A stretch of 64,000 nt of DNA from a bacterium (GTDB lineage Bacteria > Ratteibacteria > UBA8468 > B48-G9 > DTJG01), in contig JAKPDB010000176.1 of assembly GCA_029552985.1 (NCBI GenBank), forward strand, positions 64,798 to 128,797, in the 5' to 3' direction. The position numbers and the translations under genes are program-made. The stretch's first letter is position 1, and every line of letters begins with the position of its first letter. Below, in pieces: positions 58,792-62,542 of this stretch. The notes beneath the pieces are model-generated. The model was not told where the DNA came from, ran no database searches, and saw only the letters and a program-made list of their open reading frames with translations.

Positions 58792-59532
58792 TCATAACTT
58801 TTTGTCTTCCAGTATCTTATGTTTTAAGAAAAATCCCAAAAAAATCAGGGTAATCTCATAAAGAAAAATAAGAACACCAGCAATAATAGTCTGGGTTATC
58901 GCGTCTGTGGTTGGGGTAATGATTGCAGAAATTATAAAAGCACCCACATAGACAAATTTCCTCAATTTCTTCATTTGATCAATACTGATGATTCCAGAAA
59001 TTCCAAAAAAAGCCAGAACAACAGGCATCTGAAAAACAATACCAAGTGCAAGGACTATCCAAATAAAAAATGAAAGATAATATCCTATGGTCACCAGGGG
59101 AACCATCAAATTTTCTCCAAAAGCCAGGAGTATTTTTAGCCCCACAGGCACAATAAAATAATATCCTAATAGAATACCCACATAAAATAGTAATAATCCA
59201 GCACTCAAGGAAAATAAGAACAATTTTGCTTGTTCATTGCTAAGTGCTGGTTTTACAAATACATAGATTTGAAAAAACACAAAAGGACAGCTTAAAAGGA
59301 ACCCAAAAAAAAGCGTAAGTTTTATAACCGAGAAAAATGGCTCAACTGGAGAGACAAACACCGGGTTTTTTTGAAATATGCTCAGGGGCCTTATAACAAA
59401 CTTAAGTATTTGATTATTAAATACATAAACAATGATACAGCACAGAAAAAACCACAAAAGAATAAAAAGAATCCTACGCCTGAGCTCTTCAAGATGGTCA
59501 AAAAATGTCGCATCATGAGAATTCATTTTCAA
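58792..59532 (-). CDS. tatC: Twin-arginine translocase subunit TatC
   Basis: 246 aa, 6 TM. N-terminal FFDHLEELRRR motif. 4-nt overlap with tatA. Confidence 0.9.
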   Translation of the reverse strand: MKMNSHDATFFDHLEELRRRILFILLWFFLCCIIVYVFNNQILKFVIRPLSIFQKNPVFVSPVEPFFSVIKLTLFFGFLLSCPFVFFQIYVFVKPALSNEQAKLFLFSLSAGLLLFYVGILLGYYFIVPVGLKILLAFGENLMVPLVTIGYYLSFFIWIVLALGIVFQMPVVLAFFGISGIISIDQMKKLRKFVYVGAFIISAIITPTTDAITQTIIAGVLIFLYEITLIFLGFFLKHKILEDKKL

Positions 59533-59714
59533 TGCTCGCTCTTATCTTCTTTTTCCTCTTTTTCCTCAACTGCCTTTTCAACTTCCTTTAATCCTTTTCT
59601 GAACTCACCTATGGCTTTCCCAAATGCTCTTCCAATTTCAGGCAATCTTTTCGCACCAAACAAAAGTAAAATAATCAACCCTATCAGAACCAGTTCCTGA
59701 ACTCCAAGGTTCAT
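59529..59714 (-). CDS. tatA: Twin-arginine translocase subunit TatA/E
   Basis: 61 aa. LVLIGLIILLLFGAKRLPEIGRAFGKAIGEFRKG, then an acidic tail. Confidence 0.95.
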   Translation of the reverse strand: MNLGVQELVLIGLIILLLFGAKRLPEIGRAFGKAIGEFRKGLKEVEKAVEEKEEKEDKSEH

Positions 59715-59734
59715 AAAATCCTCCTTGTGAAGGT

Positions 59735-60325
59735 TTAATAATATTTGCCGTCTACTATATGAAACCTTCTTTCACCTGCTGTTGACACCCTAATTGCAGC
59801 ATCCTTTTTTGGCACAGGACAATTTTGTTCGCAGAGCCCGCATCCAACACAAATTCCAGGGTTAACAATCGGCCTGCCCTTTTCATCAAGGTATATAGCC
59901 TGAACCGGACAGAACTCGAGACATACAAGACATTCCTTTTTATGAGTCCACACAAGGCACTCCTGCTTATATATCATGGCTGTACCAATTTTTATTCTAT
60001 CCTGGTCCACAGTTCTTATTGCACCTGTAGGACATACCTTTGAGCAATTCTGACATAAAATACATCCCTTTTGTCTTGGAATGATCTCTGGTGTTGCCCA
60101 ATGATTTAGGGATTTTTTAATTTCCACCTGTTTCAGGCATCTCGATGGACACGTCCTTATACATTGTCCACATCTGATGCAAAACAAAGAAAATTTGTCC
60201 TCTTCAAGAGAACCAGGCGGACGTATGATTAATGATGAATTATTTCTCCCTGGTTTCATGAACCCCGGCAAAATAGCAAAAAAAATCGCGGAGCCGAGAG
60301 AAACAAGAAACTCCTTCCTATTCAT
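59735..60325 (-). CDS. NapG-like periplasmic polyferredoxin (four [4Fe-4S] motifs) with Tat-like signal
   Basis: N-terminus MNRKEFLVSLGSAIFFAIL. Cys clusters CIRCGQCIRTCP, CILCQNCSKVCP, CLVCLEFCP, CVGCGLCEQNCP. Confidence 0.75.
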   Translation of the reverse strand: MNRKEFLVSLGSAIFFAILPGFMKPGRNNSSLIIRPPGSLEEDKFSLFCIRCGQCIRTCPSRCLKQVEIKKSLNHWATPEIIPRQKGCILCQNCSKVCPTGAIRTVDQDRIKIGTAMIYKQECLVWTHKKECLVCLEFCPVQAIYLDEKGRPIVNPGICVGCGLCEQNCPVPKKDAAIRVSTAGERRFHIVDGKYY

Positions 60326-60944
60326 GCCTTTTCTTTGTTAACTTCCCTGTAAGTTTCTTTAATCTTATTTTTGTACCAGTAAGCGTGTAAAGCCTGCCAA
60401 GAGGGCAAAAACAATTACACCATAGTCGAGGAACCATAATAGCAGTGACAATGATAATTCCAAAAAACCCAACCCACAATTTCAATCTTGTTGCGGCCTG
60501 ACCCATAATGACAAAGGGATCAAAGACAAAACCTATAAAAGGTAATGAGAGAAAACCAGAAAATATAGCAGATAAAATCACAATCATTAAAATTATTAGG
60601 CCTCCATTCCTCAACCACTTTGGTATCAACAAGGTAATCTTCCATTGCTTTCTCAATGTAACCAGATTAAGATAATCAATGATGCCACCTAATGGGCAAA
60701 CCCACCAGCAAAAAAAGTTTCCAATTATCCCTATAAATAACAGAAATAGTATCCCGGGAAGCATGAGTAAACCAATAGTCCCTGTCATTATTATCACTGA
60801 AATTGTCAACAATCCATCTAACTGATAATAGATACTCAGTGGCAATTTTTCAGAGACAGGAAATGCCCCTGTTTTTTTCAAAAAGAAAAAAAACAAGAAA
60901 ATACTCAAAAACTGAACAAGTCTTCGTACAATGTTTTTTTTCAT
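60318..60944 (-). CDS. NapH/NosR/CcoG-type membrane protein with two CX3CP motifs (no C-terminal ferredoxin domain)
   Basis: 208 aa, ~5 TM. CWWVCPLG and CFCPLGRL motifs. Overlaps the downstream polyferredoxin gene by 8 nt. Confidence 0.7.
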   Translation of the reverse strand: MKKNIVRRLVQFLSIFLFFFFLKKTGAFPVSEKLPLSIYYQLDGLLTISVIIMTGTIGLLMLPGILFLLFIGIIGNFFCWWVCPLGGIIDYLNLVTLRKQWKITLLIPKWLRNGGLIILMIVILSAIFSGFLSLPFIGFVFDPFVIMGQAATRLKLWVGFFGIIIVTAIMVPRLWCNCFCPLGRLYTLTGTKIRLKKLTGKLTKKRHE

Positions 60945-60961
60945 AAAGTGACCTTGAAATT

Positions 60962-61858
60962 TTATACATAATTGACCTTTACCTTTGAAAGGTCTGATTC
61001 GCCAAGTCCCATTTTTCCCGCAATCTGAATGTGTCTGACCTCTAATGGATTGACCCCGAGAAGTGTCGCACCAAAGGCATCAAGAGCAACAAAATCAAAT
61101 CCTCCAAAGACCATTTTTGTTTCCTTCACTTCGCCAGGGCCCTGAGGTCCCCTTGTAAGAAGAATTCTTGTAGCATCAACAATTGTAATGGTAGGTTTTA
61201 AAAAAGATGAGATATCAGCAATACATTGATTAAGGTCTGTTCTATGAAAATATCCCCTATCTCTTACAGCACCCATCCAGTTTTTCATAGAAATTGTTAC
61301 TTTCGCCTCAGAGCCATGAACCTTTACAACCGGTACGTTAATAAGAACATCTGCGTCAAGGATATCCTCAAGGACATCTGCTTCTTTCAATACCACACCA
61401 GAAGGAATTGATACCTTCCTGAATTTTTCAGGACCATTCATAATGCCCCCGGCAGTTTCTACTGCTTGTCTAATTCCACTTTTCGTATAAGTTACCTGCC
61501 ATGGATTACAGGTAACATCAGTAACGATTACAGTTGATGCGCCTGCCTTTTTACTAAGATTAACAATTGTTCCAACAACATCTGGATGTGTGTTTGCTGC
61601 CTGCTCCGGACTTCTATTCCATGCTATATTCGGCTTTACTACAACCCTTGCGCCCTTTCTTACAAACCTCTCTATCCCACCAAGGGATTTTATAACTCTT
61701 GCAGTCAACTCTGAAGGACTTGCGTCCCTTGCAACAAAAATTTCTGACTTTTGCTCACTAGATTTTACTGGTCTGCCAGAAACTTTTGAGTACTTGGCCA
61801 GTATCAGTCCAGCAGCAGCGACAAGACTGGTTTTCAAAAATTCTTTTCTATCCATCAT
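60962..61858 (-). CDS. DUF362-domain protein with Tat-like signal peptide
   Basis: N-terminus MMDRKEFLKTSLVAAAGLILA. VVVKPNIAWNRSPEQAANTHPDVVGTIV is the pattern I associate with DUF362. RBS AAGGAG upstream. Confidence 0.65.
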   Translation of the reverse strand: MMDRKEFLKTSLVAAAGLILAKYSKVSGRPVKSSEQKSEIFVARDASPSELTARVIKSLGGIERFVRKGARVVVKPNIAWNRSPEQAANTHPDVVGTIVNLSKKAGASTVIVTDVTCNPWQVTYTKSGIRQAVETAGGIMNGPEKFRKVSIPSGVVLKEADVLEDILDADVLINVPVVKVHGSEAKVTISMKNWMGAVRDRGYFHRTDLNQCIADISSFLKPTITIVDATRILLTRGPQGPGEVKETKMVFGGFDFVALDAFGATLLGVNPLEVRHIQIAGKMGLGESDLSKVKVNYV

Positions 61859-61938
61859 TGCTCCTTTTTTATGATTATCAAATACTTACGTATTGAATAT
61901 TCAACCTTTTTCTTATCATGATAAACCGGCCGAAAAAC

Positions 61939-61967
61939 ATTATAACCGGCTTTTATGTACCTTGCAA
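61939..61967 (-). promoter_or_regulatory. Putative sigma70-type promoter of the DUF362-napH-napG-like-tatAC operon
   Basis: On the minus strand: TTGCAA (61967-61962), 17-nt spacer, TATAAT (61944-61939). This leaves a ~75-nt leader that carries three AT-rich palindromes. Confidence 0.5.
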
Positions 61968-62542
61968 GTTTTATTTTACAGAATCATACTTACAAGGACT
62001 TTTGAAATTAGACGATGATAACAGGTGATATATTTATCTATAAAGCTCGTAACATATCACAAAATTTAAACCCTCATTTTTATGAAAGCAGGGACAACCT
62101 TTTGTTCAGGGCCTTTTCAGTTTTTATTTTTTAATGCGTGCCTTTTTATTAAAAATAATAGTCAAGATACCTTGGTTGTTGATGACTGAAAACAGACCTT
62201 ATAGACATCGAAACTAAATGACATTTATAAATCACTTTTACAACAGGGCTAGACGCCCTGCCCTTTGGATAATTGGTTAGTGTTGGACTGTCTGTACATT
62301 TACGGAACATGGGCTCACAAAATCTCACCTGTACAATTTTAAGTCTTGCGATAAACAAAATATTCCAAATTCCCATTCGTTGTACCTTCCAGGGTACAAA
62401 AAGATTTGAAAATCAAAATAAGGATTCTGGAGGTTAAAAAGCAGGAGCCCATAATACAGGAAAAACAGAAGGCATAAACATCAATTCAAGAAAGGGTTCT
62501 TTCTACGCCATCTGTTATTAACTTCATAATTTCATAACTCCA

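Follow-up and report, generated by a model that had tools for sequence, protein, structure and literature searches.

Organization of the gene cassette

We analyzed a stretch of 64,000 nucleotides from contig JAKPDB010000176.1 (the whole of which is called the window below) and focused on a cluster of five genes on its reverse strand, between positions 58,792 and 61,967. The first gene encodes a DUF362 protein, and it is followed by genes for a NapH-like membrane protein, a NapG-like polyferredoxin, and TatA and TatC, two components of the Tat (twin-arginine translocation) system. From the comparisons described below we think, with a probability of roughly 70%, that this cluster is a self-contained cassette. 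That is, it would encode a periplasm-facing membrane iron-sulfur (Fe-S) module together with its own minimal TatAC, in which the recognition pair of signal and receptor is altered. The genes and motifs are as follows.

60962 to 61858, reverse strand: DUF362 gene, 298 amino acids (297 from the second ATG); PF04015, E 2e-48; N-terminal Tat-type signal; LarA-like fold in the structural model
61832 to 61852, reverse strand: Tat motif D-R-K-E-F-L-K, DUF362 residues 3-9, from the alignment of homologs
60318 to 60944, reverse strand: NapH-like gene, 208 amino acids, four-helix membrane protein; Fer4_5, E 5e-9
60693 to 60710, reverse strand: first CX3CP motif, CWWVCP, NapH-like residues 79-84, from the sequence
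60402 to 60419, reverse strand: second CX3CP motif, CNCFCP, NapH-like residues 176-181, from the sequence
59735 to 60325, reverse strand: NapG-like polyferredoxin gene, 196 amino acids, four [4Fe-4S] motifs; NapG model, E 7e-28; N-terminal Tat-type signal or anchor
60302 to 60322, reverse strand: Tat motif N-R-K-E-F-L-V, NapG-like residues 2-8, from the alignment of orthologs
59529 to 59714, reverse strand: tatA, 61 amino acids; TatA/E profile; sole TatA/B/E-family gene of the genome
58792 to 59532, reverse strand: tatC, 246 amino acids; TatC profile; aligns to the E. coli and Aquifex TatC structures; sole tatC of the genome
59485 to 59487, reverse strand: codon of TatC Glu16 (Glu15 of E. coli TatC), conserved, from the alignment
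59230 to 59232, reverse strand: codon of TatC Gln101 (position of Glu103 of E. coli TatC), from the HMMER alignment to PDB 9dzz_A

An earlier note on this DNA, made from the letters alone, had described five genes on the same strand with overlaps or gaps of 20 nucleotides or less, and all of these open reading frames were recovered. The DUF362 and NapH-like genes are separated by 17 nucleotides and the NapG-like gene and tatA by 20, while the NapH-like and NapG-like genes overlap by 8 nucleotides and tatA and tatC by 4. The note had also taken the first gene for DUF362 and had placed tatA and tatC behind the third gene, and the profile scores bear out both identifications: DUF362 protein against PF04015, 165.4 bits (cut-off 24, model positions 1-199 of 200 covered); TatA against TIGR01411 (TatA/E), 69.5 bits (curated cut-off 53.9); TatC against TIGR00945, 176.1 bits (curated cut-off 132.7). 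Several of its descriptions agreed with what we found, namely a membrane protein of 208 residues with two CX3CP motifs (both present, with a Fer4_5 match), a four-cluster polyferredoxin like NapG (four motifs; among the NCBIfam models NapG matches best, with a score under its cut-off), hydrophobic stretches behind both N-termini, MMDRKEFLK and MNRKEFLV, and a cassette that contains no molybdoenzyme or cytochrome gene.

The closest homologs carry database names of Candidatus Omnitrophota/Ratteibacteria-type bacteria. The genome, which is from an uncultivated bacterium, is assembled into 178 contigs that total 2.2 Mb, at a completeness of 86%. A DUF362 ortholog was found in 33 of 65 related genomes, and the five-gene order recurred in all cassette regions that were fully recovered, so that the neighborhood of DUF362, napH and napG with tatAC, which the note had regarded as worth following, is kept in related genomes. 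This comparison indicates that the five-gene arrangement is far from a chance one. Within the genus, the ratio of nonsynonymous to synonymous substitution rates (dN/dS) was about 0.03-0.2 across the five cassette genes (about 0.1 for DUF362, 0.13-0.23 for tatC, and 0.03-0.07 for tatA). All five genes are thus under purifying selection, which argues that the cassette is functional and not decaying.

Arg-Lys signals and the recognition residue of TatC

The N-terminal motifs were compared in the 120 best of the 2954 DUF362 homologs found. Arg-Arg stands at the aligned position in 93 of these 120 sequences (for example MKRREFLK and SRRDFLK), and the 12 closest homologs, with an identity of at least 68%, possess D/N-R-K-E-F-L/I. 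Cassettes were recovered in the Arg-Lys clade from four metagenomic contigs, and also from 31 genomes of the same phylum-level group. Arg-Lys was present on both proteins, where recovered, in every genus-level cassette, and Arg-Arg was present on both proteins in the other genera, except for the NapG-like protein of one locus (L150). The Tat signals of the genus are located at positions homologous to canonical Arg-Arg signals, and behind Arg-Lys come a helix of weak hydrophobicity and basic residues. The TIGR01409 Tat-signal model gave no match on the cassette N-termini, and the best match of the genome to PF10518 was the DUF362 protein of the window, with 14 bits against a cut-off of 22.7. 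Because the orthologs possess Arg-Arg at the identical positions, both N-termini are identified by alignment as Tat signals that are homologous to canonical ones, and the same alignments indicate that Arg-Lys is the derived state of one genus.

We then consider the receptor. In the HMMER alignment of the window TatC with E. coli TatC (PDB 9dzz_A), the segment fvkpalsneq pairs with fiapalykhe, so that Phe92 corresponds to Phe94 and Gln101 to Glu103. That is, the window TatC keeps Glu16 (Glu15 in E. coli) and Phe92, and has Gln at the Glu103 position. Among the 11 genus-level cassettes, the residue at this position was Gln in 9 and His in 2, and it was Glu in all sister cassettes. The Tyr100-equivalent residue is not conserved in either clade.

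The cryo-electron microscopy (cryo-EM) structure of E. coli TatBC with MdoD shows the second Arg of the signal salt-bridged to Glu103 and the first Arg meeting Glu15 via a water molecule, and the E103A mutant of TatC has lost binding and is transport-inactive (PMC13323110). In the genus, canonical recognition is retained for the first Arg and Glu15, for Phe and Leu/Ile of the consensus, and for the Phe equivalent to F94. In contrast to that structure (PMC13323110), the second Arg is replaced by Lys and Glu103 by Gln or His. The comparison thus shows that the second Arg of the signal and its Glu103 partner in TatC have changed together in this genus. The earlier note had proposed that both proteins leave the cytoplasm by the Tat system encoded beside them, even with an Arg-Lys pair. 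This proposal is supported by the Arg-Arg signals of the orthologs and by a genus TatC that is without the Glu paired to the second Arg. Both the twin arginine and Glu103 are deemed nearly invariant in Tat transport, and the genus has altered both sides of the salt bridge at once in a system with only two clients. The genus pair therefore offers a natural experiment on the reading of the signal, which can be matched directly to the cryo-EM structure of 2026.

It might be considered that Arg-Lys is a neutral variant, tolerated under A+T pressure in a lysine-rich lineage, and that Gln or His in TatC is a coincidence. A single change of Arg to Lys is partly tolerated in E. coli, one G-to-A change (AGA to AAA) is enough to yield Arg-Lys, and Arg-Lys occurs sporadically elsewhere, in L150, P0059 and P0091. 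However, sister lineages with a G+C content of 26-31% keep Arg-Arg and Glu, while that of the genus is about 37%; since these lower-G+C sisters keep Arg-Arg, the explanation by A+T pressure is unlikely. Moreover, A+T pressure does not favor the change of G to C by which Glu becomes Gln. Both Arg-Lys motifs are invariant within the genus despite saturated synonymous divergence, and the TatC residue that changed is just the structural partner of the signal residue that changed (PMC13323110). Taken comprehensively, we consider the neutral explanation unlikely, though it deserves some weight.

Another explanation is that the Tat system of the genus is inactive or decaying and that the two proteins stay in the cytoplasm or are routed by Sec. 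The binding-negative, transport-inactive E103A mutant (PMC13323110) would favor it, and a 2026 review, which describes F94 and E103 as highly conserved key residues, reads their loss as evidence that the binding site is inactive (PMC13673990). Against this, the five genes are intact in all fully recovered cassettes of the genus, with the purifying selection described above, and the motif R-K-E-F-[LI] is strictly conserved. It is established that a four-cluster ferredoxin cannot be assembled after transport by Sec. The chance that this explanation is correct seems to us very small.

A Tat system apparently dedicated to two proteins

A single tatC and a single tatA are present in the genome. Our scan of the genome for R/K-R/K-x-F/L-L followed by an uncharged stretch found no other convincing Tat substrate. 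In the 65 related genomes, tatC was present in 33 of 33 genomes with the DUF362 ortholog and absent in 27 of the 32 without it, a count that is limited by the position of tatC next to the cassette, since the two could be lost together through assembly gaps. Several genomes of at least 90% completeness lack both the cassette and tatC. In addition, the matches of the Tat-signal model in long open frames of the related genomes were mostly the two cassette proteins. Thus, TatAC is apparently dedicated to these two proteins, and it is likely that the recognition pair could change because the translocase serves only two clients.

TatAdCd of Bacillus subtilis, with its cargo PhoD, is likewise a minimal TatA/TatC encoded beside its cargo and apparently has few substrates. 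The cassette resembles it in having a two-component TatA/TatC next to the cargo, and differs from it in that the cargo consists of two redox proteins of the same operon and in that the recognition pair is altered.

The tat genes also occur in other surroundings in the phylum-level group. In genus g3, which belongs to the family of the window's genome, tatA and tatC are located directly upstream of a nuoA-F operon (L159, 5161-6144; L163, 5155-6314); their TatC carries Thr where Glu103 would be, and the g3 genomes yielded no recognizable Tat-signal protein. In G074 (L162, 2579-5854), a tatC with Phe at that position is directly upstream of rnfC/rnfD-like genes, of which rnfC is backed by a tblastn match in the window's genome and rnfD was assigned by eye only. 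A block of NapH-like, NapG-like, tatA and tatC genes without DUF362 is present in G073 (L161, 1163-5429); two paralogous genes of 357 amino acids lie upstream, in the place of DUF362, and look by eye like the uroporphyrinogen-decarboxylase or methyltransferase type. In G063 (L160, 326-4140), a polyferredoxin gene with an internal Arg-Arg is followed by tatA, tatC, and genes for proteins of 296 and 367 amino acids, the latter with the Tat-type N-terminus MDRREFLKW and, by eye, an AmmeMemoRadiSam-type radical SAM enzyme.

NapH-like and NapG-like subunits

The NapH-like protein has four transmembrane helices and two CX3CP motifs, and Fer4_5 matches it twice. It scored 48-49 bits against the NapH/MauN models TIGR02163 and NF007013 (cut-offs 213 and 234), and the NapG-like protein scored 82.6 and 97.4 bits against the NapG/MauM models TIGR00397 and NF007012 (cut-offs 178.85 and 269). 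Because these scores are far under the cut-offs, we call the proteins NapH-like and NapG-like, and do not regard them as members of the families. Thus, from the comparison with NapH in the earlier note, the Fer4_5 domain and the two CX3CP motifs stand, while the NapH model score is below its cut-off and the C-terminal ferredoxin domain is missing. That is, neither the sequence nor the profile matches of the 208-residue protein contained the C-terminal cytoplasmic domain of NapH with its two [4Fe-4S] clusters; the second CX3CP is followed by just 27 residues, and the protein contains no other cysteines. Basic residues are located behind both CX3CP motifs, from which we infer, by the positive-inside rule, that the motifs are probably on the cytoplasmic side. 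The [4Fe-4S] motifs of the NapG-like protein are at residues 49-60, 88-99, 123-140 and 159-170. For both the DUF362 and the NapG-like proteins, anchoring to the membrane by uncleaved signals seems likelier than a soluble state.

The cassette resembles NapGH, and also MauMN and NosGH, in possessing a membrane protein that has four helices and two CX3CP motifs, and a Tat-exported, periplasm-facing four-cluster ferredoxin, the gene of which adjoins that of the membrane protein. Unlike NapGH, its partner is DUF362, with no NapA, NosZ or MauB-type partner in the cassette; its membrane subunit is without the cytoplasmic two-cluster domain; and its host genus has no recognizable quinone synthesis, as described below. 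It also resembles the polytopic polyferredoxin PFD (Tooke et al. 2017, PMC5449189), of which the two halves match the NapH-like and NapG-like genes of the window. Unlike PFD, the form in the Omnitrophota group is split into two genes, with the 8-nucleotide overlap in the window, and it has no cytoplasmic ferredoxin domain. The split is shared by the other related Omnitrophota cassettes in which the membrane subunit was recovered. Since the NapH and NapG parts are separate genes, the ferredoxin half bears an N-terminal signal.

Electron partner on the cytoplasmic side

The earlier note had regarded the module as quinol-linked. NapGH is an established quinol dehydrogenase (PMC5449189), and the best named matches of the two subunits are NapH and NapG; by this explanation, the NapH-like protein would oxidize quinol and pass the electrons via the NapG-like ferredoxin to DUF362. 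In contrast, a UbiA-family prenyltransferase was found in 0 of 12 genomes of the genus, although the control search detected it in 14 of 14 reference genomes, and an MqnA-type gene was also found in 0 of 12. In the wider group, 33 genomes bear the cassette, and 29 of them were likewise without a UbiA match. With the NapH and NapG scores far below the cut-offs and without the cytoplasmic domain of NapH in the membrane subunit, the claim of a quinol link was not upheld, and we give this explanation little probability. The genus probably makes no quinones. In favor of the quinol link, many other phyla that have the module, such as Bacteroidota and Desulfobacterota, do make them. NuoB/D-like and RnfC-like genes are present in the genus.

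The apparent absence of quinone synthesis and the lack of the NapH ferredoxin domain make it likelier, in our view, that the cytoplasmic partner is a soluble low-potential carrier. The rest of the claim, by which an Fe-S module for electron transfer faces the periplasm and has DUF362 as its conserved partner, was supported by the gene comparisons. Such a module in the periplasm of cells that apparently make no quinones suggests that electrons cross the membrane by a route not described so far.

Pairing of DUF362 with polyferredoxins in many phyla

For the wider module, one genome per species was scanned, which gave about 600 related loci, and the best 80 were studied. In about 72 of these 80 loci, a NapH-NapG-type polyferredoxin gene (380-600 amino acids) lies directly 3' of a DUF362 gene with a Tat signal; in most of the remaining loci, contig ends cut the neighborhood. 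The phyla include Bacteroidota, Desulfobacterota, Ignavibacteriota, Armatimonadota, Verrucomicrobiota and Nitrospirota. In the scanned examples, the partner is a NapH-like domain fused to a NapG-like one, and long forms add a cytoplasmic ferredoxin domain. Most loci scanned also have an internal Arg-Arg and a weakly hydrophobic helix before the fifth helix and the NapG-like part. In this they match the polytopic polyferredoxin, which was shown to require both Sec and Tat (PMC5449189); DUF362 is not mentioned in that work (Tooke et al. 2017). The split form followed by tatA and tatC was present in the Omnitrophota group only, among the loci studied, and in three loci (L023, L046, L073) tatA and tatC are just upstream of the module.

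The genome also has two cytoplasmic paralogs of DUF362, without a signal, which are fused to two-cluster ferredoxin domains. In one of the two paralogs (G000:C108:14637-15233, L006 1105-2202; G000:C7:3376-4158, L007 1327-2406) the fusion is C-terminal, and in the other it is an insertion in the middle of the protein. From the pairing and the fusions it can be argued that DUF362 exchanges electrons with Fe-S clusters. Among the other neighbors across the phyla, nothing was conserved beyond the polyferredoxin, plus LarB/LarC in five loci. These comparisons indicate that exported DUF362 and polyferredoxin form a conserved redox module of many phyla.

DUF362 might instead be an accessory protein, for instance one that carries a cofactor, aids maturation or docks the polyferredoxin, with the substrate-converting site located elsewhere. 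The literature and the search of PDB chains gave no substrate, activity or solved structure for any DUF362 protein, and neighbors besides the polyferredoxin are not conserved, both of which would suit such a role. Nevertheless, the two-gene pairing is strict over many phyla with no third conserved partner, fusions of DUF362 with ferredoxin domains recur, and the fold is enzyme-like with invariant polar residues, as shown in the next section. We therefore find it improbable that DUF362 is only an accessory.

The pairing is of wide relevance, because DUF362 and polytopic polyferredoxins co-occur in many anaerobic phyla, including the gut Bacteroidales. Together with the LarA fold and the export route, it makes two large families of uncharacterized function into a defined, testable redox module.

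Fold and possible cofactor of DUF362

The AlphaFold2 (AF2) model of the DUF362 protein had a predicted local distance difference test score (pLDDT) of 90. When this model was searched against the PDB with Foldseek, the top 19 matches were all LarA-family structures, with E-values from 4e-6, a probability of 1.0 and a query TM-score of about 0.45-0.5. The modeled structure thus indicates that DUF362 has a LarA-like fold, and Pfam places DUF362 and LarA_N in one clan, CL0471 (PMC11770544). On the level of sequence, the DUF362 profile gave only noise against PDB chains, the comparison of DUF362 with LarA sequences by hhalign and HMMER gave no significant match, and Pfam names only DUF362.

The invariant residues of DUF362 include Lys75, His181, Lys192, Asp200, Arg201 and His205. 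In the non-significant HMMER alignment, His181, Lys192 and His205 fall on a His, a Lys and a His of a LarA homolog, which we take to be the catalytic His174, the tethering Lys184 and the nickel-binding His200 of L. plantarum LarA. Since the alignment is not significant, these equivalences are inferential. DUF362 differs from LarA in being about 160 residues shorter, and in being predicted to be exported and wired to Fe-S clusters; LarA is a cytoplasmic racemase. The papers found that mention DUF362 give no function for it.

The genome possesses larB, larC and larE, but it also has two true LarA homologs. LarC was present in 25 of 40 module-bearing genomes and absent in 15, including that of the isolate Parabacteroides faecis, and it was present in 6 of 14 control genomes. 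The co-occurrence of LarC was thus neither strongly enriched nor universal, and it was rejected as a test for the nickel-pincer cofactor.

In four loci of Bacteroidales (L039, 4832-6846; L050; L051; L086), larC and larB lie in divergent orientation beside the pair of DUF362 and polyferredoxin genes, and these LarB and LarC are NCBIfam equivalogs. In a genome of Competibacteraceae (L064, 10086-11300), larC is directly 3' of the polyferredoxin gene, and no LarA homolog was found in that genome. New families of nickel-pincer enzymes have been found via such gene linkage (PMC13524815).

From these results we can suggest the nickel-pincer cofactor on DUF362 only tentatively, with the odds against it. 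If all parts are joined, DUF362 would be a folded enzyme exported by Tat, which carries the nickel-pincer cofactor and is wired by the polyferredoxin to electron flow, and of which the signal has been re-coded together with TatC in the genus; this combined picture is doubtful as a whole. If it is true, DUF362 would be the first nickel-pincer enzyme that is coupled not to racemization but to electron transport, and the private Tat system would be a natural case in which signal and receptor were re-coded together.

Proposed mechanism

The cassette is a combination of known kinds, namely an NapGH/PFD-type module, a partner with the LarA fold, and a minimal Tat system in which the recognition pair has been altered. 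We propose that it works as follows. The NapH-like protein would be inserted by Sec, with the four cysteines of its CX3CP motifs at the cytoplasmic face. The NapG-like and DUF362 proteins would fold and load their cofactors in the cytoplasm, and TatAC of the cassette would carry both across the membrane, where their uncleaved signal helices would anchor them. DUF362 would act as the catalytic or terminal subunit and trade electrons with the polyferredoxin. The partner on the cytoplasmic side would not be quinol; a low-potential donor or acceptor such as ferredoxin seems likelier.

Several points weigh against this picture. All Arg-Lys cassettes belong to one genus and therefore represent one evolutionary event, which gives no statistical proof of the paired change. 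In L150 (G022:C13), the NapG-like protein has K-R-K-E-F-L while the DUF362 signal has Arg-Arg and TatC keeps its Glu, meaning that Arg-Lys can arise singly, without a change in TatC. Other TatCs of the phylum-level group, those of g3 beside nuo and of G074 beside rnf, also are without Glu at that position. Quinones could be scavenged, and the NapH-like protein of 208 residues has only four cysteines, by which the crossing of the membrane by electrons is not accounted for. Finally, further Tat substrates or quinone genes might be missed in a genome that is 86% complete; from the result for 12 genomes of the genus, overlooked genes are unlikely to explain the absences.

Promoter-like site and conserved leader

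Two features were identified upstream of the DUF362 gene.

61939 to 61967, reverse strand: promoter-like TTGCAA-N17-TATAAT, top consensus match of the region, 10/12
61859 to 61938, reverse strand: conserved 5' leader of about 60-80 nucleotides, 5' of the ribosome-binding site, from the alignment of 12 genus-level upstream regions

The terminator scan found no terminator-like site 3' of tatC. Beyond the promoter, the 575 bp or so at 61968-62542, between the operon and a pyruvate phosphate dikinase gene, contains no convincing open reading frame. The TTGCAA-N17-TATAAT promoter of the earlier note is present and is the best match of the region; the total of promoter-like sites in the region was not above the shuffled expectation. 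Of 12 genus-level relatives, 8 have the site in the same register. An Rfam search of the operon and the leader gave no credible match. Across the 12 genus-level relatives the leader contains the conserved blocks AAAAAGGTTGAA ... TAAGTA.TTGA.AATCA ... AGGAG, and it may serve as an operator or as an RNA element.

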